Notes: generated by a model not told the origin, from the letters alone. A stretch of 64,000 bases of DNA from Candidatus Woesebacteria bacterium (GCA_035402805.1 DAONDY010000002.1:49801-113800), one strand, 5' to 3'. Counted from the first letter of the stretch, positions 593 through 44,238 are shown. Translations and numbers: made by a program.

Positions 593-1597
593 TTACAAAG
601 GAAGAATTATTTTAAAAACACTCCCCTGTTCAAGAACACTTTGAACACTGATTAAACCACGATGCTGTTCAACAATTCTTTGAGCAATAGAAAGACCAAG
701 ACCGTAACCTGATGTTTTATCTTTAGTACGAGCGTTATCGGCTCGATAAAAGCGGTCAAAAATACGGGGTAAATCTTTTTGAGAAATACCAATTCCATGA
801 TCAGTAATCTTAAAAATTACGTTTTTTCTAGTCTTAAAGGCAATAAATTTTATTTGGCTATTTTTAGGGCTGTATTTAAGAGCGTTGTCGAGAATAATTA
901 AAAATAATTCCTCTATTTTTTGACTATCAACATTAATGTGGCCACTAACTGTTTTGGTTTTGATAATAATTTTTTTATCGATAGCGGCGGTTGATATTTT
1001 TTTAATAGATTCGGTCATTAAGTTTTTGATGGAAACTGATTCGATTTTTAAAGGAGAGCCACTATTACTTAAGTGATTTAATTCTAAAAGAGAGTCGGAT
1101 AAAGTCTTAAGCTGATTAGTGGCGTGAATAGAATCAGTTAAAACTTTTTTGGATTCAGTTAAATCTAATTTTGGATCACGGAGAGAAACTTCCAACATAG
1201 TTTTTAAGGCGGTAATGGGAGTCTTTAACTCATGCGAAGCATCGCTGATAAACTGTTTTTGATCTTCGGTCATCTTTTGAATAGGAAAGAGAGTGCGGCC
1301 AGCCAAAAAATAGGATAACAACCCAGAAGTTAAAATAATAAAACCATTAATGATTAATAGATTAGTTAAAAGACGTTGTTTACTTTCGATGATTAGATCG
1401 TCATCTATAATGATCTTCGGCGGACGAGGATTATCGTTGATAATAAATTGTTTTTCAAAACGATTTCGCTGAGAATCGGCAAAGCGATTAATTTCTGAAC
1501 TAACCAACTGATAAATTAGGGCACTAAAAGAAAGACTAATAACCATGATTATTAACAGATACCAGGCAGTTAATTTTAATCTAGCTTGTTTAAACAT
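593..1597 (-). CDS. Two-component sensor histidine kinase
   Basis: N-terminal TM segments; HisKA H-box [12 protein letters not shown]; HATPase_c motifs ([19 protein letters not shown]). Confidence 0.85.
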
Positions 1598-2350: not shown

Positions 2351-2932
2351 ATGATAAAATTAATTAATATGACAAATAAAACACAAGAAAACCTTTTAAA
2401 AGCATTCGCTGGTGAAAGCCAAGCTAGAAATAAATATCGAATTTTTGCCAAAATGGCGAGAAAAGAAAATTTAGAATGGATTGCCAGAGTGTTTGAAGAA
2501 ACGGCTGATCAGGAAGCGGCTCACGCTGAAGAAGAATTTGAAATGATAAAGGAAAAAACCACTACCAGTGATAATTTAGGAATTGAACCATACAGCACAA
2601 AAACAGTGGAAAATTTAAAAATGGCGGCGGCTGGTGAACATCATGAATGGACTGAAATGTATCCTTCTTTTGAAGAACAGGCAAAAATTGACGGTGACGC
2701 GGAAGCAGAAAGATTATTCAGAGAGGTAAAAGATGTGGAGAAAAAACACGAGGAAAGATATATTATTATCGCAACTCATTTAGATAACAACACTCTTTAT
2801 AATAGAGAGACTGAATTGGAATGGAAATGTGTAAATTGCGGTTACATTCATAAAGGAAAAACTCCCCCAACAACTTGTCCGGTCTGTAAAAAACCTTTGA
2901 CTTGGTACATGCCATTGGGATTAGTGAGATGA
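2351..2932 (+). CDS. rbr: Rubrerythrin
   Basis: Ferritin-like diiron region with E..H motifs (EAAHAEEE, AGEHHE) plus a C-terminal rubredoxin-like CxxC...CxxC (CVNCGY...CPVCKK). Confidence 0.85.
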   Translation: MIKLINMTNKTQENLLKAFAGESQARNKYRIFAKMARKENLEWIARVFEETADQEAAHAEEEFEMIKEKTTTSDNLGIEPYSTKTVENLKMAAAGEHHEWTEMYPSFEEQAKIDGDAEAERLFREVKDVEKKHEERYIIIATHLDNNTLYNRETELEWKCVNCGYIHKGKTPPTTCPVCKKPLTWYMPLGLVR

Positions 2933-3354
2933 AAAAAGAGAAAATCGTTTTAGTTGGAGGTTGTTTTGATATTTTGCATTTGGGACATGTAATTTTTTTA
3001 GAAAAAGCTAAGGCCTTAGGTGATAAATTAATAATTTTATTAGAGTCTGATAAGAATATTTTTGAAAATAAGGGAAAAAATAGACCGATTAATAATCAAA
3101 AAAATAGAGCCACATTTTTGTCTAAATTAAGGATGGTGGATGAAGTTGTTAAATTACCCTACATGAAAAGTGATGATGATTATTGGAAATTAATTAAAGA
3201 AATAAAACCAGACATAATTGCGATCAGTGAAAACGATAAAAATTTGGATAAAAAGAAAAGACAGGCCGAAGAAATTGGGGCTAAATTAGTGAAAGTTACT
3301 AAAATAATTCCCCATCAATCGACAAGCCGAATTATTGAAATAATTAAGATATAA
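2929..3354 (+). CDS. Cytidylyltransferase-like nucleotidyltransferase (RibL/TagD-like HxGH family)
   Basis: GGCFDILHLGHVIFLEKAKALGD matches the (T/C)FDxLHxGH nucleotidyltransferase motif. The start was placed at the ATGA overlap with the rbr stop (MKKEKIV...); the ORF track gives 2902. Confidence 0.6.
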   Translation: MKKEKIVLVGGCFDILHLGHVIFLEKAKALGDKLIILLESDKNIFENKGKNRPINNQKNRATFLSKLRMVDEVVKLPYMKSDDDYWKLIKEIKPDIIAISENDKNLDKKKRQAEEIGAKLVKVTKIIPHQSTSRIIEIIKI

Positions 3355-3917: not shown

Positions 3918-3941
3918 TATTTTTGATAAAATAGCCAAACT

Positions 3942-3958
3942 GGAGGAGTTGCCTAGTG
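3942..3958 (+). repeat. Duplicated fragment of the tRNA-Ser 5' end (acceptor plus D-arm start)
   Basis: ggaggagttgcctagtg is 16/17 identical to tRNA positions 1-17 (ggaggagtcgcctagtg at 4275-4291). Confidence 0.7.
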
Positions 3959-3960
3959 TC

Positions 3961-4010
3961 CCAAAGGGACCCCTTCGGGGTTCCAAAGGGACCCCTTCGG
4001 GGGTTTATGG
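3961..4010 (+). repeat. Tandem duplicated UUCG-tetraloop hairpins (terminator-like)
   Basis: ccaaagggaccccttcgggg occurs twice in tandem. Each unit forms a cccc-UUCG-gggg stem-loop; a ttt run follows the second. Confidence 0.55.
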
Positions 4011-4025
4011 CGCATAATTAATAAT

Positions 4026-4289
4026 ATGTATTACGTTTACGTATTATTAAATTGGAATAAAAAACATTGGTATATAGGATCGACACAAAATTTTGAGTCG
4101 AGACTTAAACATCATAACGATGGTTATACCTTTTCCACTAAGCCGTATAGGCCGTGGAAAATTGTACATTTAGAAAAATTTGATTCTAGAAAAGAGGCTT
4201 TTAAACGAGAAATGTTTTTAAAGTCTCCTTCTGGATATAAAGAATACTTATCTATTAAAGATAAAATATTAAATGGAGGAGTCGCCTAG
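4026..4289 (+). CDS. GIY-YIG nuclease family protein (small, UPF0213-like)
   Basis: YVYVLL..WYIGSTQNFESRLKHHN...PW; GIY-YIG core motifs. Confidence 0.75.
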   Translation: MYYVYVLLNWNKKHWYIGSTQNFESRLKHHNDGYTFSTKPYRPWKIVHLEKFDSRKEAFKREMFLKSPSGYKEYLSIKDKILNGGVA

Positions 4290-4361
4290 TGGTTCAGGGC
4301 ACAGACCTGGAAAGTCTGCGTTGTAAAAGACTCGTGGGTCCGAATCCCACCTCCTCCGCCA
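4275..4361 (+). tRNA. tRNA-Ser (anticodon GGA) with encoded CCA
   Basis: Acceptor stem GGAGGAG/CTCCTCC; 3-bp D stem; anticodon stem CAGAC/GTCTG with loop CTGGAAA (anticodon GGA); long variable arm; T arm GTGGG-TCCGAAT-CCCAC; discriminator G then CCA. Confidence 0.85.
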
Positions 4362-4369
4362 GAATGTTT

Positions 4370-4831
4370 TTATTTATCCATCCTGCCAACGTATTCTCCT
4401 TCTCTAGGAAAACCAGCTTTGTAATCTTCCAGTAGTTTTTTTGATAAAGCATGGGGAAATAAATTGTCGGGCAAATTATTGATGTCTAACCAAGTACACC
4501 AAACATCTCCGTCTGGATGTTGTGGATCGAGCCAATGTTCTAATTCTTCAAATTTATCAATATCACCAAGAATAAATAATTCGACACTGTGTTCATTTTC
4601 TTTTTCTGGAAATAAAAAGTCACGAATGTAAAGAATTTTTTTAAATTCAAATTTAGCTCCATTACATTCTTCGACTGTTTCTCTAATGCATCCTTCTAAA
4701 ATAGTTTCACCATATTCCAAATGTCCACCAAAATAATGATAATAATCATGTTTTTGACGATATTGGACTAATACTTTTTCATTTTTAATTACTACCAACC
4801 TCAATCGAACATTTATTTTATGATTTTCCAT
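4370..4831 (-). CDS. NUDIX hydrolase (cassette 1)
   Basis: Nudix box GGHLEYGETILEGCIRETVEECNG. Confidence 0.75.
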   Translation of the reverse strand: MENHKINVRLRLVVIKNEKVLVQYRQKHDYYHYFGGHLEYGETILEGCIRETVEECNGAKFEFKKILYIRDFLFPEKENEHSVELFILGDIDKFEELEHWLDPQHPDGDVWCTWLDINNLPDNLFPHALSKKLLEDYKAGFPREGEYVGRMDK

Positions 4832-4846
4832 AGACTTATTATATAT

Positions 4847-4900
4847 GAGTTATAAGGACAGAAAGTTTCCAGACTCAACTGCTCCACACTTCGTGTAATG
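4847..4900 (+). repeat. tRNA-3'-end-like direct repeat R1
   Basis: gagttataaggacagaaagtttccagactcaactgctcc; hairpin AGTT-tccagactc-AACT. Related to R2-R5 and to the tRNA 3' end. Confidence 0.7.
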
Positions 4901-4952
4901 TTTGAGTAGTTTAACTAAAATTTAAAAAAATAGTTAATTTATTTATCTTTAC

Positions 4953-5174
4953 TTAAAAATCAAATCGTTCATAAGGACTCTCACATTTATTACGATCTAA
5001 TTCGATTAATGATTTAGCTGTTTTTGATGAAGTAACATCAATAATTGTTCCACCAACAGTTTCAATATCGTTAACCATTTTTTCTATATTAATTTCAGAT
5101 CCTATAGCATTCCATAGAAGCTGACCATCTTTAGACCTAAAGACAATAGCTTTTTCAAATTCACAATTATTCAT
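4953..5174 (-). CDS. Hypothetical small protein, 73 aa (cassette 2)
   Basis: ORF only; no recognisable motif. Confidence 0.4.
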   Translation of the reverse strand: MNNCEFEKAIVFRSKDGQLLWNAIGSEINIEKMVNDIETVGGTIIDVTSSKTAKSLIELDRNKCESPYERFDF

Positions 5175-5286
5175 ATAATTTTATTATATCAAAATACATC
5201 ACTAATTTAAGACACTCCTTTTTTATAGTGTCTCATTTGTCTTATTTAGCTACAAAAGGCTGATAGAATGAGACATAGGAGTATGG

Positions 5287-5335
5287 GTGTTATAAGGATA
5301 GAAAGGTTCCAGACCCATATGCTCCGCCAGAATTT
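5287..5335 (+). repeat. tRNA-3'-end-like direct repeat R2
   Basis: gtgttataaggatagaaaggttccagacccatatgctccgccagaat. The ctccgccagaat end matches the tRNA 3' end plus its flank. Confidence 0.75.
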
Positions 5336-5364
5336 GAATATTCCCTGTTTTTCCTTATAACTTA

Positions 5365-5433
5365 GGAGGTGAGATTCGAATTATTTTCATAATTTTATAC
5401 GTATTAAGTTCTAAAAAGTTCTAATCTCACTCC
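5365..5433 (+). repeat. Long-range inverted repeat resembling a tRNA T-arm (ggaggtgagattcgaat ... aatctcactcc)
   Basis: 5365-5376 pairs with 5423-5433 (one mismatch). The first arm carries a TTCGAAT T-loop-like motif. Confidence 0.4.
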
Positions 5434-5474
5434 CTAACAGTGATGAGACTATATCGGAATGATAGAATTTAGCT

Positions 5475-6092
5475 ATGAAAATAATTCTTTTCCGTCATGG
5501 AGAAAAACAAAAAGTTGATTCTATAAACATAGATGATAAAAGAGCAGTAAATTTAACAGATTTTGGAATTATTCAAATAAATAAATTGGGAAAAATATTA
5601 TTAGAAAGATTTCCTATGTTAAATTTATCAAAGGTAATTTATTCAAGCCCTTATACCCGAGCAATTCAAAGTAGTGAGATTATTAAATCAATTTTAAATA
5701 TTAAAAATATTGTTATGGTTCCAGAATTTGGTGAATTTTATGCTTCTAATAATTACCAAAAACCCAAGGAGATTAGACAACAAATTCAAGAGATGGCAAT
5801 GCAAAATCCTGGTTGGATTTCACCAGAAACAAATTCTTCTTTAAATGATGAAATCTTAAAATTTAAAAATAAAATAAAAGAAATTTGTCTAAAAAATCAA
5901 GATGATTTGATTTTGATTTCAACTCATGGAGGAATTATTAGAAATACAGTTTATAGTCTTGAACCAAGATTAAGACCAGACAATAATGTAATTTTAGATT
6001 CAAAAATACATGAAGCTGGTTACACCGTCTTAGATTTTGATGGAAAAGATTTTAAAGTTAAAAAGTTTGATGTACATGATTATTTGGATTAG
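5475..6092 (+). CDS. Histidine phosphatase family protein (phosphoglycerate-mutase-like), cassette 3
   Basis: N-terminal LFRHGEK (RHG catalytic motif); a second His in STHGG. Confidence 0.7.
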   Translation: MKIILFRHGEKQKVDSINIDDKRAVNLTDFGIIQINKLGKILLERFPMLNLSKVIYSSPYTRAIQSSEIIKSILNIKNIVMVPEFGEFYASNNYQKPKEIRQQIQEMAMQNPGWISPETNSSLNDEILKFKNKIKEICLKNQDDLILISTHGGIIRNTVYSLEPRLRPDNNVILDSKIHEAGYTVLDFDGKDFKVKKFDVHDYLD

Positions 6093-6140
6093 GGTTATAG
6101 GGATAGAAAGGTTCTAGACTCACCTACTCCGCCAGAATGT
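6093..6140 (+). repeat. tRNA-3'-end-like direct repeat R3
   Basis: ggttatagggatagaaaggttctagactcacctactccgccagaatgt; hairpin AGGT-tctagactc-ACCT. The last 20 nt nearly match the tRNA 3' end plus downstream agaatgtt. Confidence 0.8.
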
Positions 6141-6149
6141 TATTCTAAT

Positions 6150-6809
6150 CTATTGTTCCAATTTATTTATGGTTCTTTGAATGTTATCTCTAGCTGCCTG
6201 CTCATATCTATTTTTAAAAAAATCAGTGGTGTAAATTGGGTGTTTTAAAATTGTTTTGAAAAATTTAGTTCTACCTTTTTGATAATCGGCTTTTGAATAA
6301 AGAGTTGAATATTCTTTGTAGATTTGTTTTTCATATATATCAAAAATATCTGGTTGTTTTCCTAATATGGACATATCAATGTCAGCTAAATATTGTGAGT
6401 CTGAATTATTAATTAGTGAAGTATGTTTAGTGAACAAAATATGATCTTCTACTTGTTTGGTAAAATCGGGAGATAAATTATTTTTTTGACAAAAAGTTTT
6501 AGCCAATTCCGCGCTTTGTTCTTCATTATCACTCTCATAAAGATTATAAACAATATCGTGATACCAGATAGCTAATTCAACTGCTTCTGGATTGTTAAGT
6601 TTATCCTTAATAAGCTCAAATTCTCCAAGAGAATTGTCTATATGTTTTAAATTATGGTAATGTCGATGGCTTTCTGAATAGTTTTTAACTATTTCATTAA
6701 AAGAATTTTGATCTTTATTAATATTTAATCTTTGACACAAATCATTCCAATGTTTATTTAATTTTTCGACTAATGGTTCTGGCTCTAAATTTTGACCAAT
6801 CTCCTTCAT
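6150..6809 (-). CDS. HD-domain phosphohydrolase (cassette 4)
   Basis: H...HD metal-binding pattern (HRHYHNLKH, IWYHDIVY). Confidence 0.6.
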   Translation of the reverse strand: MKEIGQNLEPEPLVEKLNKHWNDLCQRLNINKDQNSFNEIVKNYSESHRHYHNLKHIDNSLGEFELIKDKLNNPEAVELAIWYHDIVYNLYESDNEEQSAELAKTFCQKNNLSPDFTKQVEDHILFTKHTSLINNSDSQYLADIDMSILGKQPDIFDIYEKQIYKEYSTLYSKADYQKGRTKFFKTILKHPIYTTDFFKNRYEQAARDNIQRTINKLEQ

Positions 6810-6831
6810 TAATGCTTAATTTTATCATTTT

Positions 6832-6875
6832 GAGTTATAGAGACATTAAGTTCCAGACTCACCTGTTTCGCACTT
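6832..6875 (+). repeat. tRNA-3'-end-like direct repeat R4
   Basis: gagttatagagacattaagttccagactcacctgtttcgcacttg. Confidence 0.7.
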
Positions 6876-6922
6876 GATAAAATGTGTCCGAGTAATTTTT
6901 AATTTTATTGATAAAATAGACG

Positions 6923-7831
6923 ATGATGAGAGAGATCATCAGGAATCACGGGCAACAATCAAGTTTAATTCCTTCGATTCGAAATGAGTATTCAACCCTA
7001 ACTAAGGTTTTAGTAGTAAGTCCACCAGAAAAATTTACCAGGTTTAATAATCAAATCATTAACCCTATTAGTGATATAAATTCAAAAGGTAAACCTGAAA
7101 TCACGGAACACCCTGAACAAAAAGAAGAATTTGATGGATTATTAAATGCTCTTCAACAACAAGGCATCGAACTACATTTTTCCAATGTTAGACCAAGTAG
7201 ACCAGGCCATACTCCACTTTTTACCCGTGATATCGGGATTATTATTAGTAATCAAGTTTTACCTTCAAGAATGGCTAATACCTACCGAGAAAATGAAGTA
7301 GAAGGTGTTTTCCAAAATATTTCGTTACCTCAAATAATTAGAGACAATCGAGATTATAAAATTGAAGGCGGTGATTTTGCTTTATTAGAGCCAAATTTGG
7401 CTTTAGTCGGGATTGGACCTCGAACTAATGAATTAGGATTAAGAGTTTTACAAGAATATTTCCCAAAAATAGAATTTATTCCGGTTTATCCGGTTTTGAA
7501 TGAAAAAGCTTTTCATATTGATACCGTTATGGGAATTGTTGGAAATAAAATATTGCTGGGAATTTCTGACTTGATTCAGAAAAATGTTTCTGACTTACTT
7601 AAAAGTAGAGGCTATCAGATAATTGAGGCTGATAAAGATGAATATTTTACTTGTGCCACTAATGTTTTAGCGATTGATGATCGAAAAGTTATAGCGGCGG
7701 CAGAGAATCCAAAAACCAATGAAAAATTAAGAAAGGTTGGGGTGGAGGTAATAGAAGTTAAATTATCTGGAATTTTGAAAAGAGGTGGTGGCCCTCATTG
7801 TCTTACATTACCATTAGAGAGGGCGTCGTAA
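6923..7831 (+). CDS. Amidinotransferase-superfamily enzyme (DDAH / arginine-deiminase-like), cassette 5
   Basis: C-terminal catalytic-Cys motif GGGPHCLTLPL; His-containing FHIDTVM. Confidence 0.7.
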   Translation: MMREIIRNHGQQSSLIPSIRNEYSTLTKVLVVSPPEKFTRFNNQIINPISDINSKGKPEITEHPEQKEEFDGLLNALQQQGIELHFSNVRPSRPGHTPLFTRDIGIIISNQVLPSRMANTYRENEVEGVFQNISLPQIIRDNRDYKIEGGDFALLEPNLALVGIGPRTNELGLRVLQEYFPKIEFIPVYPVLNEKAFHIDTVMGIVGNKILLGISDLIQKNVSDLLKSRGYQIIEADKDEYFTCATNVLAIDDRKVIAAAENPKTNEKLRKVGVEVIEVKLSGILKRGGGPHCLTLPLERAS

Positions 7832-7835
7832 GAAT

Positions 7836-7856
7836 ATTCAGACTCACCTACCCTGT
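7836..7856 (+). repeat. Degenerate tRNA-3'-end-like repeat R5
   Basis: attcagactcacctaccc keeps the loop (cagactc) and the cacct stem half of R1-R4. Sits immediately after the cassette-5 stop. Confidence 0.5.
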
Positions 7857-7858
7857 AA

Positions 7859-8275
7859 ATGGTAAACTCGTTTATGGATATGACTGAAAATTTAATAGCA
7901 CCATGTGGAATGAATTGTAGTCTTTGTTTGGGATATCAAAGAGAAAAAAATAAATGCCCGGGATGCAGAAAAGTAGATGCTTATGAATCTAGTTGCGGCA
8001 GAAAATGTATTATAAGAAGTTGCCAAATTTTGAAAGAGAAAAAGATGACATTTTGCTCTGATAAATGTGAAAAATATCTATGTAAAAGACTTAAGGATTT
8101 AGATAAGAGATATAGAACAAAGTATAGAATGAGTATGGTTGAAAATTTGGAAGAAATTAAAAAATTGGGAATAAAAAAATTTTTAGAGAATCAAAAAAAG
8201 AAATGGACTTGTAAGAAATGCGGCGGTTTACTTTGTGTTCATAGAGATTTTTGTTTGAGCTGTAATAGTAAATAA
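7859..8275 (+). CDS. Cysteine-rich putative metal-binding protein
   Basis: At least 16 Cys in CxxC/CxxxC arrays (CGMNCSLCLG, CPGCRK, CKKCGG, CLSCNS). Confidence 0.5.
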   Translation: MVNSFMDMTENLIAPCGMNCSLCLGYQREKNKCPGCRKVDAYESSCGRKCIIRSCQILKEKKMTFCSDKCEKYLCKRLKDLDKRYRTKYRMSMVENLEEIKKLGIKKFLENQKKKWTCKKCGGLLCVHRDFCLSCNSK

Positions 8276-14234: not shown

Positions 14235-14798
14235 ATGAAATTGCTAATACATGCCTGTTGTGCAGATTGTCTATTAAAAATGGTGGAATCAATTAAATCA
14301 GAAAATAAATTTGATGAAATTCAGGTTTATTATTACAATCCAAATATTCATCCGAGATCAGAATATCAATCGAGATTAAAGGCAATACAATTAATGGTTG
14401 GTGATTTAAAAATGATAGTGGCTGATTGGAAACCAAGTGATTATTTTGAAGTTGTAAACCTCTCTCCGGATAAACCGGGATCTCTCCTTAACAAGGAGAG
14501 AAGTCTTCAAAAAGGGGTAAGATGTGAGAAATGTTGGAGGTTAAGATTAGAAAGGACGGCAAAGTTTGCAAAAGAAAATGGATTCGATGGTTTTAGCTCA
14601 ACATTATTAACAAGTGAATATCAAAATTCAGAAATGATTGAAAAAATTGGTGAAGAAATCTCCAAAAAATATAAAATTAAGTTTTTAATTCCTAAAAAGA
14701 TTTGTAAAAAATTAGAAACTAAGGGATTTTATAAACAAGTATTTTGCGGTTGCTGTTACTCCTTAGTAGAAAGGTTTGAAGAAAAGTTTAAGGGCTGA
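14235..14798 (+). CDS. queH: Epoxyqueuosine reductase QueH (DUF208), carrying an in-frame family A repeat insert
   Basis: LIHACCADC...CEKCWRLR...GFDGFSSTLL match DUF208/QueH Cys motifs. The repeat at 14459-14505 encodes NLSPDKPGSLLNKERSL. Confidence 0.7.
   Translation: MKLLIHACCADCLLKMVESIKSENKFDEIQVYYYNPNIHPRSEYQSRLKAIQLMVGDLKMIVADWKPSDYFEVVNLSPDKPGSLLNKERSLQKGVRCEKCWRLRLERTAKFAKENGFDGFSSTLLTSEYQNSEMIEKIGEEISKKYKIKFLIPKKICKKLETKGFYKQVFCGCCYSLVERFEEKFKG
14459..14505 (+). repeat. Family A repeat copy A3 (inside queH, in frame)
   Basis: cctctctccggataaaccgggatctctccttaacaaggagagaagtc. Confidence 0.8.
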
Positions 14799-34223: not shown

Positions 34224-35145
34224 TTTCTTTTTTATCTATTTTAACTGGATTTTGTTTTTGAATGCGAGAAATTAGAGATTTGAAATTGTAGATTTTAAAA
34301 AGAGAAATCAAATTTAAGAAGGAAGTTTGATCAAATTTTGATTGGGAAAGTTTAAAATTAAGAGGGATATTGCTGACTAATGTAGCTAATTTTTGCGAAA
34401 GATAGGCATTGTCTTTATTTTTTTCTAGTTTTTCTTTAACTGAAACTTTAATCTGATCTAAATTTTTATAAATATTATCTAAATTCTGATATTTATTAAG
34501 CAAATCAATGGCAACTTTGGGACCAATACCGGCAACGCCCGGATAATTATCAGACATATCCCCCATTAAGGCCTTTAAATCGATAACTTGTGTTGGAAGA
34601 ACACCTAATTTTTCTTGAACATCCTTAGTTTTAAATATTTTAGTTTCGGAAAGGCCACGAATAGGAACAAAAAGAGAAACTTTTTCGTTAACAAGCTGCA
34701 TTAAATCCTTGTCACCAGTGATGATAATAACCTCATCAACTATTTTTCTTTTATGTTTGGTTTTCTTTTTAAGAGCTTTGATAGTAAGAGTGGCAATTAA
34801 ATCATCAGCCTCAAACCCACCCATAGAAAAAGTATTAATTTTAGCTTCTTTTAGGGTTGATTCTAATAAAGGAAGCTGAGAGATTAATTCATGGTCGGCT
34901 GGTTTACGTTTAGCCCGATAACCTAAAAATTCATGATTTCTAAAATTTGGACCTGGAGAATCAAGACAGACGGCTAAATATTTAGGTTTAAGAATGTTAA
35001 TGGCAGTAAGAAGCATGGAATAAAAACCATAAAGAGCGTTAACTGGTTGACCATTGGAATCTAGCGGCGGAATGGAGTGATAGGCACGATGAATGACGGC
35101 ATGACCATCGATAATAACAAGTTTAGACATATAGTAGTTTATCAA
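34192..35145 (-). CDS. 5'-3' exonuclease (Pol I N-terminal-like / FEN family)
   Basis: LVIIDGHAVIHRAYHS; acidic clusters (GFEADD, ITGDKDL); C-terminal helix-hairpin-helix region. Confidence 0.8.
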   Translation of the reverse strand: MINYYMSKLVIIDGHAVIHRAYHSIPPLDSNGQPVNALYGFYSMLLTAINILKPKYLAVCLDSPGPNFRNHEFLGYRAKRKPADHELISQLPLLESTLKEAKINTFSMGGFEADDLIATLTIKALKKKTKHKRKIVDEVIIITGDKDLMQLVNEKVSLFVPIRGLSETKIFKTKDVQEKLGVLPTQVIDLKALMGDMSDNYPGVAGIGPKVAIDLLNKYQNLDNIYKNLDQIKVSVKEKLEKNKDNAYLSQKLATLVSNIPLNFKLSQSKFDQTSFLNLISLFKIYNFKSLISRIQKQNPVKIDKKENVISNQQSLF

Positions 35146-35173
35146 GTTAAGGATTTGCTGGTAGAATTAAAAG

Positions 35174-36088
35174 ATGGAACAACACCCTATTCCACAGCAG
35201 ATATCATCCTACGAATTTAAACTTGTGGGAGATATGACCTTGAAACAATTTTTAAAGGCAGGAGCAGGAATAATTTTAGCAATACTGATTAATTCGACTA
35301 AATTAATAGTCTTGGTTAAATGGCCATTGATGCTTTTGTTTGGTGCTGGTGGTTTATTGTTGGCGTTTGTACCGTTCGCAGACAGACCTTTGGAGTCTTG
35401 GATAGTTTCTTTTATAAAAGCAATTTATTCACCAACGATTTATACCTATCAGAGAAAAGGTAATAAAAATTGGCTAGATTTAGATTTGACAAAAACAACG
35501 AAACAAAGCGAAGAAGATATTGTAGTTTCTAAAACTAGATCACCGTCTTTAGGAAGTAAAATAAAAGACAGTATCGCCACAATGGGGATAAAAATTAACA
35601 AGGAAGAAAGACAAACTGAAGAGACTGAAGCAACTGAAAATATAAAAACAGAGACTAAAGTAATTCCAAGACAAGCAAAAGTTGAAGAAGTTAAAAAGGG
35701 AGCTGTTAATGAAATACAAAAAGATGATTGGAGGGATCAAAAAGTTGATCTAAACTTAAAAACAGAAAAACTTGGAGCAACCGGTGAAGTTATTTTTGGA
35801 AGTATACCAATGCCAGATATTCCAGAAATTCCAAATGTAGTGGTGGGAATGGCAACGGATAGAGATGGAAAAATAGTTGATGCAGTTATTGTGGAAATTC
35901 AGGATGAAAATGGAAATCCATCAAGAGTATTAAAAACAAATTCCTTAGGGCAATTTAAAACAACTACCCCATTGGCTAATGGTAGATACCTGATAATTGC
36001 AGAGAAAGACGGTTATAATTTTGATAGAGTTAATATAGACTTGAAAGGACAAATAGTTCAACCGGTCAAAATAATTGCTAATAGTTAA
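35174..36088 (+). CDS. T4SS-associated membrane protein: N-terminal VirB3/PrgI-like TM hairpin plus C-terminal CarbopepD_reg-like beta domain
   Basis: Two adjacent TM helices (GIILAILIN..., LMLLFGAGGLLLAFVPF); C-terminus GRYLIIAEKDGYNFDRV. Lies immediately upstream of VirB4. Confidence 0.45.
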   Translation: MEQHPIPQQISSYEFKLVGDMTLKQFLKAGAGIILAILINSTKLIVLVKWPLMLLFGAGGLLLAFVPFADRPLESWIVSFIKAIYSPTIYTYQRKGNKNWLDLDLTKTTKQSEEDIVVSKTRSPSLGSKIKDSIATMGIKINKEERQTEETEATENIKTETKVIPRQAKVEEVKKGAVNEIQKDDWRDQKVDLNLKTEKLGATGEVIFGSIPMPDIPEIPNVVVGMATDRDGKIVDAVIVEIQDENGNPSRVLKTNSLGQFKTTTPLANGRYLIIAEKDGYNFDRVNIDLKGQIVQPVKIIANS

Positions 36089-36797
36089 AAATAAAATGCC
36101 AACAGATCCATTAAAAATCGCCATTAAGGGAAGCACTCAAGAACATTTACCAATAGAGGATATTATAGATGGGATTGTGATGTTAAAGGATGGTTCTTGT
36201 TCGATAGTTTTGAGCGTTTCTTCGGTCAATTTTGATTTATTATCAGAGCAAGAACAATCTGCTTTGGTTTTTGCTTATGGCGGAATTATAAATTCTCTAA
36301 ATTTTCCAATTCAAATTATTATCCAATCACACTCTAAAGATGTGAGCTCTTATCTAAAAAACTTGGAAAACATACAAGAAAAACAAGTCAATCCTCAGCT
36401 AAAAGAGAGAATTAAACAATATCGAAAATTTATAGAAGAAACGGTCAAGAAAAATAATGTGTTGTCTAAATCTTTTTATATTGCTGTTAGTTTTTCGACC
36501 TTAGAATTGGGAATCAAAAGTGGCGGAGTTAAAGGGGCAATGATGTTTTTGCCAAAAAACAAAAAACAGGAACTGCCTTTTACTAAAGAGTATATTTTAG
36601 AAAAGGCTAAAGCTAGTTTAGAACCAAAAAGAGATCATTTAGTTAGACTATTTTCAAGATTAGGACTGGAAATAGAACCATTAAACAATAAAAAATTGAT
36701 TGACCTTTTTTATAGAACTTACAATGAAGAAACAGCTATTAATCAAAAAATTCAAAACGTAAACTATCAAGCACCGGTAGTAAATGGAGAAAAATAA
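36075..36797 (+). CDS. Hypothetical T4SS-associated protein
   Basis: ORF between the VirB3-like and VirB4 genes on the same strand, with overlapping ends. Confidence 0.4.
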   Translation: MLIVKNKMPTDPLKIAIKGSTQEHLPIEDIIDGIVMLKDGSCSIVLSVSSVNFDLLSEQEQSALVFAYGGIINSLNFPIQIIIQSHSKDVSSYLKNLENIQEKQVNPQLKERIKQYRKFIEETVKKNNVLSKSFYIAVSFSTLELGIKSGGVKGAMMFLPKNKKQELPFTKEYILEKAKASLEPKRDHLVRLFSRLGLEIEPLNNKKLIDLFYRTYNEETAINQKIQNVNYQAPVVNGEK

Positions 36798-39207
36798 AAT
36801 GAAATTATTCAACAAAAAAACACCACCAGCAAATAATCCGACTCCAGTAAAAGAGAACGAAAATCAAAGAGATTTTACGTCTGGATTGGTAACAACCAAA
36901 GATATAATTGCCCCCGCCTCTTTAGAGGTAGATTTCAATCATATTAGAATTGACAATAAATATTACCGAACCTTATTTGTGGCAGCATATCCGAGATTTG
37001 TAGGGATTAATTGGCTGTCATCATTAATTAATTTTGATTCATCTTTAAACATTTCGATGTTTATTTATCCGACTGATGGAAAAGAAGTTTTAGATGATTT
37101 GAGAAGAAAAATTACGGAAATGGAGGCTGAATTGAGCACTGATATTCAAAGAGGAAGATTGATTAATCCAGCAACCCAAGCAAAATTGGAAGATGCCTTA
37201 AATTTACAAGCCAACTTGGTCAAAGGAGAGGAAAGATTTTTTCAATTCGGGCTTTATATCACGATAACCGCAGACACAGTGGCAGAATTGGATAGAACCA
37301 ATAAAAATTTAGAGGCAGCTTTAGGATCGCTTTTGATTGTGAGTAAAAGGGCCACTTTGCAAATGGAAGACGGTTTTATAACAACATTGCCAATTTGTCG
37401 AGATAAATTGTCGATTAGTCGAAACATGGATACAACATCTTTGGCAACAACTTTCCCTTTTGTATCTTCTGATTTATCCGATGATAGGGGTGTTATGTAT
37501 GGGGTTAATATGCACAATGGGTCGCTGGTTATTTTTGATCGATTTTCAATGCAAAATTACAATTCAGTAGTTTTTGCGACAGCCGGTGCTGGTAAGTCTT
37601 ATTTAATTAAACTGGAAGTGCTTCGATCATTAATGATGGGGACTGAAATTATTGTCATCGATCCAGAAAATGAATATAGAGAATTATGTGTTAGTTCTGG
37701 TGGTCAATATATTGCTTTTGGTTATGGAGAGGGTTCTAAAATTAATCCATTTGATTTAACTTTAGCCGAAGAAGAGGGTGAAAATGGTTTAAATACTAAA
37801 ATTCTATCGCTTCATAAATTATTAAAAGTAATGTTGGGAGAAATGGATCCAATCGAAGAGTCAATTATGGATAGAGCAATGATGGATACCTATAAAATGA
37901 AGGGTATTACACCAGACCCAGCAACTCAAAATAAGGAGGCACCACTAATCGAAGATTTATATAAATCACTGATTGGGATGGAAGATGAAAAGGCAAAGAG
38001 CTTGGCTGCTAGATTGGAAAAATATATCAAAGGATCTTTTGCTGGAATTTTTAACCAAAAAACAACAGTGGAGTTAAATAATAAATTTGTGGTTTTTGGA
38101 ATTAAAAATCTAGAAGACGTGTTGAGACCAGTGGCTATGCAAATTATTTTGGACTATATTTGGACGGTAGTTAAAAAGACACTTAAAAAGAGAATACTGG
38201 TGGTTGATGAGGCTTGGTATTTAATGCAACATGAAGATTCGGCAGAATTTTTAAGAGGAATTGTTAAGAGAGGAAGAAAATACTATTTAGGAGTAACAAC
38301 AATTACCCAAGATGTGGATGATTTCTTGGAAACTGCCTATGGTAAGGAAATTGTTACTAATAGCGCAATCCAAATCTTATTAAAGCAACACAGTGCAGCA
38401 ATTGATCAAATTGGAGAAGTTTTTTATCTAAGTCAAGGGGAAAAACAGTTGTTATTATCGGCAAACAAGGGAGAAGGGATATTTTTTGCTGGACAAAATC
38501 ATGTGGCGATACAAGTAATTGCGTCAGAAGATGAACATAACTTAATTACATCGAATCCTGAGGATGTGTTAAAAAAACAAAATCTGTTGGGTAACTCCAA
38601 ACCAGATAATGGTTTTAAGGCGCCGATTCAAAATCCCTCTGTCAATAAATTGACATCTCCCTTTGATGAAAGGGAGAAATTAAAAATAGAAGAAGTTAAA
38701 AAAGTTGAAGTGGTACCTAAAATTAATATTCCAGAAATAAAAACCATAGAAATTGAAAACAAAATAAATAAACCGGTTGAACTTGAAGAAAAAAAGCCTT
38801 TAGTACCAGAAAATCAAATTAAACCAGAAATAAAAGATGAATCGGTTTTATTTAAAAAACCAGAAGTGGTAGTAATTCAAAACCCCTCAGTCCCCGATAA
38901 ATCAGTGACAGCTCCCCTTGATAAAAGGGAGCCATTAAAACTAGAAATAAATAAACCTGTTGAAATTAAAGTTGAAGAAGTTAAAAATGAAATCAAAAAA
39001 CCAATTTTTATAAAAAACGAGGAAAAGAGTATTCCCCAACCACCACAATTAAGCAAAAAACCACAACCAGTGTTTGACTTAAACCCACCTGCCCCCGTCG
39101 GGGCACCCTCCCTTGAAAATGGAGGGCAAAAAAATATAAGTGAAACGAAAAAAGATAATTCTGGAAAGATGGATTATGATAAATTGTTTGGTAACGGAAT
39201 AGTCTAG
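36784..39207 (+). CDS. virB4: VirB4/TrbE/CagE-like conjugation-type ATPase with a ~200-aa repeat-derived low-complexity C-terminal tail
   Basis: Walker A VFATAGAGKSYL; Walker B ILVVDEAWYLM; 807 aa. The tail contains repeats A5, A6 and A7. Confidence 0.85.
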   Translation: MEKNKMKLFNKKTPPANNPTPVKENENQRDFTSGLVTTKDIIAPASLEVDFNHIRIDNKYYRTLFVAAYPRFVGINWLSSLINFDSSLNISMFIYPTDGKEVLDDLRRKITEMEAELSTDIQRGRLINPATQAKLEDALNLQANLVKGEERFFQFGLYITITADTVAELDRTNKNLEAALGSLLIVSKRATLQMEDGFITTLPICRDKLSISRNMDTTSLATTFPFVSSDLSDDRGVMYGVNMHNGSLVIFDRFSMQNYNSVVFATAGAGKSYLIKLEVLRSLMMGTEIIVIDPENEYRELCVSSGGQYIAFGYGEGSKINPFDLTLAEEEGENGLNTKILSLHKLLKVMLGEMDPIEESIMDRAMMDTYKMKGITPDPATQNKEAPLIEDLYKSLIGMEDEKAKSLAARLEKYIKGSFAGIFNQKTTVELNNKFVVFGIKNLEDVLRPVAMQIILDYIWTVVKKTLKKRILVVDEAWYLMQHEDSAEFLRGIVKRGRKYYLGVTTITQDVDDFLETAYGKEIVTNSAIQILLKQHSAAIDQIGEVFYLSQGEKQLLLSANKGEGIFFAGQNHVAIQVIASEDEHNLITSNPEDVLKKQNLLGNSKPDNGFKAPIQNPSVNKLTSPFDEREKLKIEEVKKVEVVPKINIPEIKTIEIENKINKPVELEEKKPLVPENQIKPEIKDESVLFKKPEVVVIQNPSVPDKSVTAPLDKREPLKLEINKPVEIKVEEVKNEIKKPIFIKNEEKSIPQPPQLSKKPQPVFDLNPPAPVGAPSLENGGQKNISETKKDNSGKMDYDKLFGNGIV
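38631..38678 (+). repeat. Family A repeat copy A5 (inside the VirB4 tail, in frame)
   Basis: aaatccctctgtcaataaattgacatctccctttgatgaaagggagaa. Confidence 0.75.
38881..38931 (+). repeat. Family A repeat copy A6 (inside the VirB4 tail)
   Basis: aacccctcagtccccgataaatcagtgacagctccccttgataaaagggag. Confidence 0.7.
39087..39130 (+). repeat. Degenerate family A-like copy A7 (inside the VirB4 tail)
   Basis: cctgcccccgtcggggcaccctcccttgaaaatggagggc keeps the two-hairpin architecture. Confidence 0.5.
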
Positions 39208-39223
39208 AGAAGATTGCTATAAT

Positions 39224-41068
39224 TTGATGATGGCAAATGGTGTTAGAGATAAAATTAACGAGCTTTCTGGTGATAGCAGATTTTTGTCTGCAGTTATTGA
39301 AAATATCTTTCAAGAAAAAGAAATAAAAACCAGTAGGGAGGAGGTTGGTGAATTGGTAAGGGTTATTGGGCAAGAATCTAGAGGTAAAAGCGAGAGTGAA
39401 ATTCAAATAGAGGCAAAAAAAATCAGTTTAGAAATTGAAAGGTGGAAAGAAAAAAATCCCGATTTGTCAAAAGAATATAAAAAAGAAGAATTCAAAAAAA
39501 ACTTTCACGAAGAGGCAAAAAAAATAAACCCTAGTTTAAGCGAAGAACAATCAAAAAAAATTGAAGAATATGGTGAATTAGTATCAGATAACTCCTTTGA
39601 TAAAAACGTTTTAGATGGTTATCAGAACGAAGCCTTAGAGGCTAACAAAGATTTTGGACCGGGAAAATTAGAAAACTCATGGTCTGATTTAAAACAGGTA
39701 GTTAATTTTATACAGAAAAGTCCAGAAGAAATAAAAAATATCAAAGATAAATACAATTCTTTAAAGGAGGGTTTAAAAGACGTTAAGGTTCCAAGTAATT
39801 CGAAAGAGGTTAGATCTTTTGAAAAGATTGTATCTAGTTTAAATAACCCAGGGACAGATCAATTATTTTCTAAAACAAAAAATTTTTTAGGTCGGTTGGA
39901 TAAAATAGATAAACTGACTGGTGGATGGTTAAATAAAACGGTAACTGACGCTGGAATGAAAATGGTGAGTAAGATTGGGAATCAGACAATACAAGAATTT
40001 GCAACGAATTCATTAAATGTATTAGTAAAGGAAGGATTTCAACAAGGATTTTCGACAGTTTTGAATGGAGTTTTAAGCGGAGGAGTAAAAGCAGCGGCAA
40101 CAACTGGAACAACAGGTGGAGTGGCAACAGCAACTGGAGTAGCAGCAACCAGTGCAACTGGAGCTGCGGCTGGTGCAACTGGAGCTGCGGCTGGTGGAGC
40201 AGCGGCGGCAACTGGAGCAGCGGCGGCAGGATTATCAGCGACTGGAATTGGAGCAATTGTTGTAGCTGCAGCGGCGGTTCTTAAAGTTGTAAAAGATGTG
40301 GGAAATAAAATAGCAGAAAAATTAGGAATTGATACTAAACAATTTTTTGAAGAAAAATTTGGAAAAGTAGGAGGATTTTTTGTTAAACAAACTATAAAAA
40401 TAACAACGATAACAACAATATCGTTAATACCAATAATTGTTGTTGGATTGGTTATTTTTTTGTTTATCAATGCAATATCTACGGGTTCTTCAGTTTCTAG
40501 TTTAGTGCCACCGGGTGATGAAGTTCAAATATCTGAGACATTGTATGATGAAACCTATGTTTCATCTAATGAACCAATTGTTTTACCGACAGTAATTAAA
40601 AACCAAAAACCAACTGGACAAATGATTGTAGATATGGCTCGATCTCTGTCGGCTAAGGTTTGTTATTATTGGGGCGGAAAAAGTAATGTTATTGGTATTG
40701 ATCCAAAATGGGGTCAAAAAATAACTCCTGATCATATGGGAAGAGATATTGCTGGGCTGGATTGTTCTGGTTTTGTTAATTGGGTTTATCACCAATATGG
40801 ATATAGTCTGGGAAAAATTAAAAGTATGTATGATAATTACACACCAATTAGTGAAAATGATTTACAACCTGGCGATATAGGAATTATAGGTTATGAAATA
40901 AATGGTAAAAATGGATGGCATGTAGGAATATTTACAGGAAGAGATGCTGAAGGTAAATCGATGTGGATTCACTCAGGGTCAACGTCAAAAAGTTTAGGTG
41001 TTTGTAAATCTGGTTTTGTGGCTGAAACTCATGATCCTGGATTTACAAAATTTGCGAGAATATTATAA
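39224..41068 (+). CDS. T4SS-associated cell-wall hydrolase: coiled-coil and Gly/Ala/Thr-rich region, TM, and C-terminal NlpC/P60 (CHAP-like) peptidase
   Basis: C-terminus GLDCSGFVNWVYHQYG...GDIGIIGY...WHVGIFTG (catalytic Cys/His). Low-complexity stretch AATTGTTGGVATATGVAATSATGAAAGATGAAAGG. Confidence 0.7.
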   Translation: MMMANGVRDKINELSGDSRFLSAVIENIFQEKEIKTSREEVGELVRVIGQESRGKSESEIQIEAKKISLEIERWKEKNPDLSKEYKKEEFKKNFHEEAKKINPSLSEEQSKKIEEYGELVSDNSFDKNVLDGYQNEALEANKDFGPGKLENSWSDLKQVVNFIQKSPEEIKNIKDKYNSLKEGLKDVKVPSNSKEVRSFEKIVSSLNNPGTDQLFSKTKNFLGRLDKIDKLTGGWLNKTVTDAGMKMVSKIGNQTIQEFATNSLNVLVKEGFQQGFSTVLNGVLSGGVKAAATTGTTGGVATATGVAATSATGAAAGATGAAAGGAAAATGAAAAGLSATGIGAIVVAAAAVLKVVKDVGNKIAEKLGIDTKQFFEEKFGKVGGFFVKQTIKITTITTISLIPIIVVGLVIFLFINAISTGSSVSSLVPPGDEVQISETLYDETYVSSNEPIVLPTVIKNQKPTGQMIVDMARSLSAKVCYYWGGKSNVIGIDPKWGQKITPDHMGRDIAGLDCSGFVNWVYHQYGYSLGKIKSMYDNYTPISENDLQPGDIGIIGYEINGKNGWHVGIFTGRDAEGKSMWIHSGSTSKSLGVCKSGFVAETHDPGFTKFARIL

Positions 41069-41087
41069 ATTAGTTTAAAATAGATAG

Positions 41088-41468
41088 ATGATTGATTTTT
41101 TAAAAAGATATTTTATCTTAATTGTTTTGGTTATTTTAGTAATAATTTTAATTTTTTTAAAGATTTTTTATGGAAACAATGATAAAAATCCTGATAATTA
41201 TTCCACAAAAATAACACCAACTGAAGTACCAGTACAAACATCTTTTGAAACCGAAAGTGAGGATATTGTTCCAGCTGAAGATTATGTATCAGTATTGCCA
41301 TATTTGGGTAAAAAAATGAAAATATTAGGAATTAAACGTCCAGGAGTTTTAGAGATAATGATTGGAGATGAAGCAGATAAAGATGAAGCTATAAAAGAAA
41401 TAGAGTTATGGAAAACAAAATATCCAACATTTAAGGAATACACTTCTGAATTTACGATTCGTAATTAA
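41088..41468 (+). CDS. Small membrane-anchored protein
   Basis: N-terminal TM followed by a soluble domain. Confidence 0.4.
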   Translation: MIDFLKRYFILIVLVILVIILIFLKIFYGNNDKNPDNYSTKITPTEVPVQTSFETESEDIVPAEDYVSVLPYLGKKMKILGIKRPGVLEIMIGDEADKDEAIKEIELWKTKYPTFKEYTSEFTIRN

Positions 41469-42587: not shown

Positions 42588-42895
42588 TGTCTTATATTAT
42601 CAAAAAATGATTTTAATTTAAAGCTTTTATAAAAATGATTTATCAAAAAAATAGTAGTAATGGTTAGTAGAGGGTGTTGATAAGTGGAATAAAAATAAAA
42701 TTGACGGAAAGATATAGAAAAATTTATTTTTAATGGGAGTGAATTAATTAAAAATGATTCTAAAATAGGCATAATTTGATTTTTTGTCTTATAATTTGAT
42801 TTGGAGTTTGGGTAAGTTTCGGGGGAAAAATAAAAAATAAATTGTGGATAAAATTGTGGATAAGTGGTCTTATTAGGTGGATAACTTTTAAATAA
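42588..42895. other. Candidate oriC (dnaA-dnaN intergenic): AT-rich with clustered DnaA boxes
   Basis: tgttgataa at 42676-42684; tgtggataa at 42844-42852 and 42856-42864; gtggataac at 42877-42885. An AT-rich stretch lies at 42600-42660. Confidence 0.6.
42843..42886. promoter_or_regulatory. Cluster of three DnaA boxes (TTATCCACA on the reverse strand)
   Basis: attgtggataaaattgtggataagtggtcttattaggtggataac. Confidence 0.65.
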
Positions 42896-44233: not shown

Positions 44234-44238
44234 TTGAT

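Follow-up and report, generated by a model that had tools for sequence, protein, structure and literature searches.

A Woesebacteria genome (candidate phyla radiation) has short repeats 3' of a serine tRNA gene: what are they, and what do they bound? In the window, the 64,000-nucleotide stretch of DNA that was analysed, the original prediction described five plus-strand repeats downstream of tRNA-Ser(GGA) and read them as attachment half-sites displaced outward from the tRNA or, equally, as an integron-like cassette array with a tRNA-derived site. That observation is partly confirmed and the reading partly supported. At a probability of roughly one half, we consider the repeats to be tRNA-Ser-derived, DNA-level recombination or insertion sites that bound exchangeable single-gene cassettes. 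The features of the locus are collected in Table 1.

Table 1. Features of the tRNA-Ser(GGA) locus, in window coordinates.
Feature	Position	Strand	Basis
Relic promoter-like TTTTGATAAAATAG, then first 17 nt of tRNA-Ser(GGA) gene (GGAGGAGTTGCCTAGTG, 3942-3958)	3920-3958	+	sequence; L110 comparison
Two 22-nt GC-rich hairpin units in tandem, then GTTTATGGCGCA (4003-4014)	3958-4014	+	direct repeat family; L158 alignment; tRNA sequences
GIY-YIG nuclease-domain protein, 87 aa, no other domain	4026-4289	+	Pfam PF01541 GIY-YIG 1.8e-15
tRNA-Ser(GGA), CCA encoded	4275-4361	+	ARAGORN; Rfam tRNA 54.8 bits
Cassette gene 1: NUDIX hydrolase, 153 aa	4370-4831	-	Pfam NUDIX 1.2e-8
R1: short core 4849-4887 and tail CACTTCGTGTAATGTTTGAGTAGTTT	4849-4915	+	nhmmer 47 bits
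Cassette gene 2: 73-aa ORF, no Pfam family	4953-5174	-	gene call; Pfam search
Long form: TATATCAAA...GAGACAC/GTGTCTC, then TGTCTCATT, TGTCTTATT, TGATAGAATGAGACA, variable leader, core R2	5185-5329	+	alignments; nhmmer 57 bits
R2: core at 3' end of long form 5185-5329	5289-5328	+	nhmmer 57 bits
Inverted repeat in tail 3' of R2, 25-nt arms, 80% complementary	5362-5437	+	inverted-repeat search
Cassette gene 3: histidine phosphatase, 205 aa	5475-6092	+	Pfam His_Phos_1 2.2e-17
R3: short core 6094-6133 and tail AGAATGT	6094-6140	+	nhmmer 52 bits
Cassette gene 4: HD-type phosphohydrolase, 219 aa	6150-6809	-	Pfam HD weak, 0.0085, below cut-off
R4: degenerate short core 6834-6871 and tail CACTTGATAAAATGTGTCCGAGTAATTTT...TTGATAAAATAG	6834-6922	+	nhmmer 33 bits
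Cassette gene 5: amidinotransferase / ADI / DDAH-like, 302 aa	6923-7831	+	Pfam ADI/DDAH 8.7e-23
R5: degenerate core remnant, 5'-truncated (GAATATTCAGACTCACCTACCCT)	about 7832-7854	+	below nhmmer threshold (E=1)
Conserved right flank: Cys-rich protein, 138 aa	7859-8275	+	L158 comparison

Four of the five predicted repeats are clear co-oriented cores of ~40-45 nt (R1-R4), while R5 is a degenerate, sub-threshold remnant; one gene is bounded by each. A 16-mer of the core, with up to three mismatches allowed, matched only R1-R4 in 64 kb (0.13 matches expected from shuffled sequence), and a family-derived nhmmer profile recovered R1-R4 and no others. R5 has the exact 12-mer AGACTCACCTAC in common with R3. 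It also resembles GGTTCCAGACTCGCCTACACCCT, a repeat of the Shapirobacteria relative L007 that comes after the gene immediately downstream of tRNA-Ser(GGA). The window cores belong to different subtypes (64-80% identity), as expected if each cassette came with its own core. The generic REP element raised as an alternative is not what is seen: REP/BIME-type dispersal is absent from the 64-kb window, where the copies form one cluster, and scaffolds of 0.35-1.0 Mb carry one matching stretch apiece instead of many dispersed palindromic copies.

Alignment confirms that R2 and R3 copy CTCCGCCAGAAT(GTT) of the tRNA end and its flank. The likeness was first placed in the last 16 nt; it actually spans about 42 nt, from the variable arm through the 3' end, and R2 agrees with tRNA-Ser(GGA) at 27 of 42 positions (counted by eye in the alignment). 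R1-R4 are nevertheless nearer to the consensus of their family than to the resident tRNA and so are not simply its 3' end copied and displaced. Their tails are of two kinds, one in R1 and R4 and another in R2 and R3. In L007 and L128, the sequence natively found 3' of tRNA-Ser(GGA) matches the R1 tail; the R4 tail is homologous to this flank in L007 and also to a core tail in L037. The R3 tail is identical to the sequence 3' of the window's own tRNA, and the start of the R2 tail, including the left arm of the inverted repeat, also occurs 3' of cores in L049 and L086.

The cores are members of a family known from more than 150 Microgenomates loci (Woesebacteria, Shapirobacteria and others); the search pattern, which biases the sample to well-conserved copies, located it in 51 stretches from genomes and 117 from metagenomes. 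About 40 loci hold 2-4 copies, and orientation is mixed in none of them, whatever the strands of the genes, which bears out the view of the repeats as DNA-level sites. Serine tRNA genes are strongly enriched near the repeats (54 of the 100 tRNA genes called in the loci), and wherever tRNA-Ser(GGA) occurs in these loci, the repeats lie downstream of it and share its orientation.

R2 forms the 3' end of a conserved long form of ~145 nt, which was aligned with 32 long forms of other genomes and is alignable with tRNA-Ser(GCT) genes over its full length; its sequence resembles that of a tRNA-Ser(GCT) gene that has decayed, with the upstream region included. Anchoring on tRNA-Ser(GGA) is too simple a description of the array: its repeats do lie 3' of this tRNA, but R2 belongs to the long form, which is a separate unit and usually present once. 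Most genomes have a single well-conserved long form, with no tRNA near it in the 8-14 kb fetched, and in multi-copy loci it is usually the first and top-scoring copy. A TGnTAnAAT-like box just 5' of the long form in the alignment may be its promoter.

Part of the argument for exchange comes from what lies 3' of the cores. Sequence beyond the core end, ...CTCCGC(C), falls into at least 10 families that also contain 3' flanks of genuine tRNA-Ser genes, and one tail with its GIY-YIG gene stands 3' of tRNA-Ser(GCT) in L011 and 3' of long forms in L020, L139 and L178. Between related genomes, homology of 400 nt or more runs from upstream into a core in 318 cases; it stops at the core 3' end in 240, stops inside the core in 64 and continues in 14. 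Three loci (L135, L151 and L164) are 92-98% identical over 3.4 kb until the core and completely different beyond it. This position at sharp gene-order breakpoints, in more than 150 related loci, makes the core look like a recombination or insertion site. Strict conservation of gene order does not hold either, and gene content varies between conserved flanks: the window has five cassettes and L158 a single one, with the Cys-rich protein family next in both. Presence/absence of cassettes appears in that comparison but not across 13 near-identical contigs, all of which have the same array; this uniformity counts against recombination sites, as does the lack of cassette-precise DNA homology between different contexts in the loci compared. 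Crossover positions seem variable, at the core 3' end in some cases and inside the core in others, which fits short-homology recombination as well as site-specific recombination.

In the favoured model the cores act as joints. R1-R5 are members of a lineage-wide family of ~45-nt DNA sites whose ancestor was the 3' half of a tRNA-Ser gene, comprising the variable arm, a T-arm remnant and the acceptor 3' strand with its end ...CTCCGC(C). Genuine tRNA-Ser genes and cores would serve as interchangeable joints, DNA 3' of a joint being replaced or inserted through recombination at or within the core, and every such event would leave one gene between co-oriented cores. The window array would then be five single-gene modules accreted between tRNA-Ser(GGA) and the conserved Cys-rich-protein gene. 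The joints may be made by a trans-acting activity, through site-specific or short-homology recombination.

A possible but less probable explanation is that the core works for the cell in cis, as RNA or as a DNA site for protein binding: it could be a terminator or insulator derived from a tRNA, a signal for RNA processing, or a small RNA made from the long form and from copies in 3' UTRs. Such a core would sit between genes because it is useful there, as a conserved dispersed sequence that is incidentally a substrate for homologous recombination. The usually single-copy long form with its promoter-like box, conservation that reaches outside the searched pattern, and hairpin tails the same as those of tRNA-Ser genes in many genomes are consistent with this explanation. 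Short cores have a co-oriented gene on their 5' side in 72% of cases, often right at the stop codon (10 of 21 such genes end -6 to +3 nt from the core; median 14 nt); this close contact with the gene 5' of the core also speaks for the recombination-site reading. In six cases of homology spanning a core, the core is more conserved than its flanks, which would fit a cellular function too, and for some long-form transcripts the fold is better than that of shuffles (z-scores of -2.2 and -2.9).

The RNA tests point the other way. Short cores fold no better than shuffles, the RNAalifold consensus is weak (-4.9 kcal/mol), and candidate helices (flanking, acceptor-like and leader-to-3'-end) are not above shuffled or swapped controls. 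In Rfam, tRNA was the sole match at the gathering score, with nothing meaningful at E<=10 and no family matched by the core. The stem with compensatory changes, originally proposed to be under selection, forms in 27 of 173 distinct cores, and its pairing equals that of the shuffled control; the covariation expected in a larger alignment failed to appear, and the R4 stem, given as AGGT/ACCT, is AAGT/ACCT with one mismatch. The remaining 28% of short cores are antisense to their neighbour, with the start codon of the opposite-strand gene 11-23 nt away in 5 of 8, yet array orientation is kept. A cis element alone also leaves the shared tRNA-Ser tails and the variable cassette content unexplained. 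The cores lack dyad symmetry as well, which is usual in recombinase core sites, and this counts against the recombination-site reading.

Which enzyme could make the joints? The window lacks a detectable integrase or recombinase, as first reported, and the search of related loci proposed at that time was no more productive: neither the window nor 1.3 Mb of related loci yielded a tyrosine recombinase, a serine recombinase or a Y1 transposase. With XerD and the C-terminal region of lambda Int as single phmmer queries, none of 4583 ORFs from the window and all loci matched at E<=1; distant relatives could be missed by such queries. A recombinase motif regex had no match on the loci, and Pfam listings over about 58 kb of the window contain no integrase. 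Small GIY-YIG genes are the only nuclease enriched in the loci and the sole candidate seen for a joint-making enzyme. In other loci, 15 of 22 lie directly 3' of a core in the same orientation, and several have a partial copy, 16-30 nt long, of a tRNA or core 3' end after them. At tRNA-Ser(GGA) the gene is present in the window and L158 and absent from L110, and carriers have a displaced promoter and a 5' tRNA fragment upstream of it. The intact tRNA-Ser(GGA) of L110 has the same promoter-like box, TTTTGATAAAATAG, immediately 5', and GTTTATGGCGCA continues the D-arm of L158/L110-type tRNA-Ser(GGA) in alignments; the final codons of the window's GIY-YIG gene overlap the 5' end of tRNA-Ser(GGA).

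These observations also suit an unlikely explanation, namely that the GIY-YIG genes are homing-endonuclease-like selfish genes targeting tRNA-Ser genes and tRNA-Ser-like cores, where cleavage and repair would drive insertion and co-conversion of neighbours and leave the partial tRNA copies as footprints. A precedent exists in phage T4 SegB, a GIY-YIG homing endonuclease active in a tRNA gene cluster. As in such free-standing genes, a gene lies at or in a tRNA gene, and a catalytic domain and presence/absence at a conserved site both appear from the sequences. Unlike them, the window protein is a catalytic domain alone; the proteins of this family have 81-87 aa and no DNA-binding domain, and most cassettes and arrays are without the gene. 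Homing by itself does not create direct repeats, and we know of no direct-repeat array produced by it.

Least probable is that larger elements (phages or integrative elements) once used integrases of their own to enter tRNA-Ser genes, were later whittled to single genes in a streamlined genome, and left the repeats as fossil attachment sites: direct repeats of the tRNA 3' portion downstream of a tRNA are the classic footprint of tRNA integration and degeneracy tends to rise along the arrays, but integrase or phage genes were seen in none of about 170 loci, a viral contig scan gave two matches that the profile did not confirm and no attP-bearing phage counterpart, cassette GC content is like that of the remaining window, the one-gene-per-interval pattern recurs in many genomes, and the cores follow the family consensus, not the resident tRNA.

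Among described systems, tandem genomic islets at tRNA/tmRNA genes are integrase-mediated, with attL/attR repeats of the tRNA 3' end between which cis-mobilisable elements accrete. They resemble the array in having an intact tRNA followed by co-oriented repeats of a tRNA 3' portion, with the junction at the tRNA 3' end, variable content between repeats and a direct repeat of that portion at the far end of the insert. In contrast, no locus searched has an integrase gene in cis or inside the insert, each unit is a single gene of 0.4-1 kb, the repeats keep a family consensus distinct from the resident tRNA, and a separate pseudo-tRNA long form also serves as anchor. CALINs are attC clusters without an integrase; as in integrons and CALINs, a co-oriented site ends each mostly single-gene cassette, the cassettes code for small accessory enzymes such as GNAT and NUDIX, and a better-conserved primary site with a putative promoter usually heads the array. 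Identity with attC (RYYYAAC ... GTTRRRY hairpin) was rejected given the missing dyad symmetry and stems equal to shuffled controls. The core, which is of tRNA-Ser origin, lacks the R''/L''/L'/R' imperfect palindrome, the gene 5' of the core is on the opposite strand for 28% of short cores, and no IntI-type tyrosine recombinase was detected by the primary site in the window or any locus. The pdif modules of Acinetobacter plasmids likewise have short conserved sites bounding gene modules and a recombinase encoded elsewhere, but pdif sites are plasmid-borne 28-bp XerC/XerD sites in alternating orientation, and the cores are chromosomal direct repeats of ~45 nt without dif-like architecture. Plant mitochondrial t-elements and mascRNA, as tRNA-like processing signals, share the placement of tRNA-derived sequence right after the stop codon of a co-oriented gene; the cores, unlike these, have no demonstrable tRNA-like fold or covariation, and many are antisense to their neighbour.

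The cassette genes themselves agree with the recombination-site reading, being small accessory enzymes across the loci (NUDIX, HD, GNAT, His_Phos and kinases). ORF calls in the window reproduce the predicted one gene per interval on strands - - + - +. Pfam supports the NUDIX, histidine phosphatase and ADI/DDAH assignments and the HD assignment weakly (0.0085). The 73-aa ORF is annotated as a gene in independent assemblies. R3, as claimed, abuts a stop codon, as does R5 and no other repeat of the window; R1 was also placed at a stop codon, but the nearby codon, 15 nt away, is the start codon of the minus-strand NUDIX gene. Genes of this NUDIX family stand start-first against a core, on the opposite strand, in L032 and L110 too, and in L040 a gene end translating to ..VHDYLD* has a core directly 3', like the histidine phosphatase gene. 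In relatives, the HD-type gene overlaps a cytidylyltransferase gene.

Downstream of the tRNA-Ser(GGA) gene, the window (~31% GC) carries four same-direction copies, R1 to R4, of a ~40–45-nt core, and repeat finding, alignment and a family profile all bear out this co-oriented arrangement. A 16-mer from the core, allowing up to three mismatches, matches the 64 kb four times, each time at one of R1–R4, against an expectation of 0.13, and the family profile recovers the same four copies and no further ones in the window. The original prediction counted a fifth repeat, R5, which proves to be a truncated remnant sharing an exact 12-mer with R3 and resembling a repeat in a relative. The proposed likeness to the tRNA 3' end holds and is larger than first described, running from the variable arm to the 3' end (~42 nt). 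R1, which had been placed at a stop codon, instead adjoins the start codon of the minus-strand NUDIX gene. Each interval between repeats contains one ORF; the cassette genes match the Pfam families NUDIX, His_Phos_1, HD (weakly) and ADI/DDAH, and a 73-aa ORF is without a family. The sequence directly following the core, its tail, is of two kinds: R2 and R3 have CTCCGCCAGAAT in common with the resident tRNA, and R1 and R4 share CACTT..GT..GAGTA.TTT. Upstream of the histidine phosphatase gene is an inverted repeat with 25-nt arms (5362–5437), a possible regulatory hairpin; the initial stretch of the tail that carries it, left arm included, recurs after cores in L049 and L086 (handles of this type denote related genome or metagenome loci with the repeat family).

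Positions of the tRNA gene and the repeats in the window
Feature	Position	Strand	Basis
tRNA-Ser(GGA)	4275–4361	+	ARAGORN, Rfam
R1 core, short form	4849–4887	+	read from sequence
R2 core, within long form 5185–5329	5289–5328	+	read from sequence
R3 core, short form	6094–6133	+	read from sequence
R4 core, short form	6834–6871	+	read from sequence
R5, 5'-truncated remnant	about 7832–7854	+	under profile threshold

The repeats generalise to a lineage-wide element family, and the finding is a real one. Scanning a degenerate core pattern against one genome per species and against metagenome contigs yielded 51 and 117 stretches, respectively, a sample biased towards the conserved copies that a pattern search favours. 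Nearly all come from Shapirobacteria, Woesebacteria or other Microgenomates; the odd labels on some element-bearing contigs (several of L012–L057, L013, L014, L015 and L054: uncultured Gammaproteobacteria, Methanoperedens, Anaerolineaceae, Oligoflexia, Bacteriovorax) probably reflect mis-binning or mislabelling. Viral contigs gave two matches to the core pattern, both unconfirmed by the family profile. The repeat occurs in two forms: a short form that is the core alone, GTTATAGGGAYAGAAAGGTTCCAGAC(C/T)C....CTCCGC, and a long form in which ~100–115 conserved nucleotides precede the core. This upstream part comprises TATATCAAAC.ACATCAC, an inverted pair GAGACAC/GTGTCTC, a tandem TGTCTCATT TGTCTCATT, a TGnTAGAAT box and a G-rich leader of variable length. 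Because each scaffold of 0.35–1.0 Mb gave one matching stretch, genomes usually carry the long form once, with two or three copies in a few MAGs. Repeat strand agrees only loosely with GC skew (31 of 45 loci) and matches the coding majority in 29 of 45. About four tandem ~29-nt units (AGAATTGCATGCCACATTCCCAAGTTT) separate the long form from a GIY-YIG gene in L034 (about 1066–1214, minus strand).

Several features tie the family to tRNA-Ser. Firstly, tRNA-Ser accounts for 54 of the 100 tRNA genes called in family loci, and any tRNA-Ser(GGA) gene within 2.5 kb of repeats is always upstream and always co-oriented. Secondly, an alignment of the long form to tRNA-Ser(GCT) genes plus 3' flank spans its entire length, interrupted in the anticodon region by a gap of ~20 nt. 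Finally, the recurrent tail families after cores are those found after genuine tRNA-Ser genes: the commonest, AAGGGTCAAAGTTCTAYGCGACCC..., follows tRNA-Ser(GCT) and also 12 long forms; the tail of R1 and R4 follows tRNA-Ser(GGA) in L007 and L128; and one tail together with its GIY-YIG gene follows tRNA-Ser(GCT) in L011 and long forms in L020, L139 and L178. The same downstream DNA can therefore have either the core or the tRNA-Ser 3' end as its left-hand partner, the two being interchangeable, with the joint at the tRNA 3' end. The window's own tRNA-Ser(GGA) scores 54.8 bits in Rfam, below the tRNAs seen in other loci, and its T-loop (4338–4344) reads TCCGAAT, with C at the near-universal U55 position, where relatives have TTCGAAT.

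Most breakpoints fall at this joint. Multi-copy loci (about 40, with some redundancy) each keep to one orientation irrespective of gene strands. Short cores adjoin the gene on their 5' side: by crude ORF calling on loci only 2–20 kb long, 10 of 21 co-oriented genes end −6 to +3 nt from the core, and 5 of 8 opposite-strand genes start 11–23 nt away. Within sub-lineages the upstream context is kept and the downstream genes vary. Alignments of at least 400 nt that enter the core from upstream (n = 318; MAG assemblies can break or join at repeats) end at the core 3' end in 240 cases and inside the core in 64, with only 14 running on. Three loci (L135, L151 and L164) match at 92–98% identity over the 3.4 kb leading to the core, beyond which come three unrelated sequences. 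L158 shares both flanks with the window (rubrerythrin, cytidylyltransferase, NUDIX, GIY-YIG and tRNA-Ser(GGA) on the left; the gene for a Cys-rich 138-aa protein on the right) and holds one cassette, a dCMP-deaminase-like gene plus core, against five in the window. Across loci, the cassette genes encode small accessory enzymes. The best-supported reading, to which we assign a probability of about one half, takes the cores as joints for recombination or insertion, derived from tRNA-Ser, with exchangeable single-gene cassettes between them and a putative trans-acting agent serving them. Close strains showed no cassette polymorphism, and cassette-precise DNA homology was looked for between different contexts without success, the genomes probably being too far apart. 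The window's cytidylyltransferase-like (2902–3354) and HD (6150–6809) genes lie 2.8 kb apart on opposite strands, flanking the tRNA; their counterparts overlap in L007, L009 and L011, and form one fused protein in P0018.

That the cores are instead a functional cis element, with recombination incidental, is a less probable account, and the long form may have an RNA or protein-binding role. Its conservation extends beyond the searched pattern, and in the alignments that span cores (n = 6) these vary less than the flanking sequence. The evidence runs against an RNA structure: Rfam, at the gathering score and at E ≤ 10, matched only tRNA and held no family for the repeats, and the RNAalifold consensus of 22 long forms folds weakly. 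Relative to shuffles, folding is somewhat better for some long-form transcripts (z = −2.2, −2.9) and no better for short cores. Pairing in a helix flanking the core was no better than in shuffles; leader-to-3'-end duplexes reached −11.4 kcal/mol with their own partners versus −11.1 ± 0.2 with swapped ones. Acceptor-like pairing between upstream sequence and the core 3' strand equalled the control, so the 7/8 match at R3 is a coincidence. The four-pair AGKT/AMCT stem of the original prediction likewise equals the control, forms in 27 of 173 distinct cores and contains a mismatch in R4. A consensus promoter and terminator scan gave counts like those of shuffles. CRISPR, a TnpB/IscB guide RNA, a group II intron end, a two-piece tmRNA and a short peptide ORF were all dropped, since there is no adjacent effector ORF, the element spans at most about 165 nt, ARAGORN calls no tmRNA and leader length differences are not multiples of three.

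Homing by GIY-YIG genes is an unlikely explanation. The sole enriched nuclease is a small protein consisting only of a GIY-YIG domain, and in 15 of 22 cases its gene directly follows a core and is co-oriented with it; the window's copy lies upstream of the tRNA instead. Its 5' side carries a displaced promoter-like box and the first 17 nt of a tRNA-Ser(GGA) gene (29 nt if the segment beyond a hairpin insertion is counted), and L110 has the same tRNA without the GIY-YIG gene, so this gene is an insertion into the tRNA-Ser locus. L007 offers a second 5' tRNA fragment besides the window's, a pseudo-copy of the tRNA-Ser(GGA) 5' part with a 29-nt GC-rich insert (14532–14610, minus strand) directly upstream of the intact tRNA. 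GC-rich tetraloop hairpin units, tandem GGGACCCCTTCGGGG at 3958–4001 of the window and CTTCGGCGGACAATGTCCGC in relatives (L158, L020, L061, L126), recur in this AT-rich genome beside tRNA-Ser ends and GIY-YIG genes, and resemble a small REP/MITE-type family. Least probable are decayed classical genomic islands. Searches for a recombinase came back empty: a motif regex found nothing, phmmer, as a coarse test with single queries (XerD, lambda Int, gamma-delta resolvase and IS200 TnpA), found none in 4583 ORFs (1.3 Mb including the whole window), and the Pfam annotation already available for about 58 kb of the window contains no integrase.

CPR bacteria, with their tiny genomes, are believed to rely on gene exchange; to our knowledge, their route of gene acquisition is poorly known. 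The joint reading points to a conserved tRNA-Ser-derived site where close relatives swap individual accessory genes (NUDIX, HD, GNAT, phosphatases). More tentatively, the Microgenomates might possess a gene-cassette platform analogous to integrons but of independent origin. Its primary attachment site would be the long form, a domesticated tRNA-Ser pseudogene with a promoter-like box and repeated TGTCTCATT motifs; tRNA-Ser genes would serve as secondary sites and the ~45-nt cores as cassette-borne ones, with recombination by a putative trans-encoded enzyme, possibly together with small GIY-YIG nucleases. If true, streamlined genomes would have a compact means of shuffling genes that parallels integrons independently, and a tRNA pseudogene would have been retained for a new role. 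Literature searches of incomplete coverage found no description of the element, which is weak evidence for novelty.

Elsewhere in the window, VirB4/TraG-like P-loop, TraC-like, PrgI-like and NlpC/P60 proteins (about 35000–41100) form a conjugation or type IV secretion-like set adjoining dnaN/dnaA. The replication origin region follows (dnaN, dnaA, rpmH, rnpA and yidC; 41469–46000), and GC skew is positive on both sides of it.
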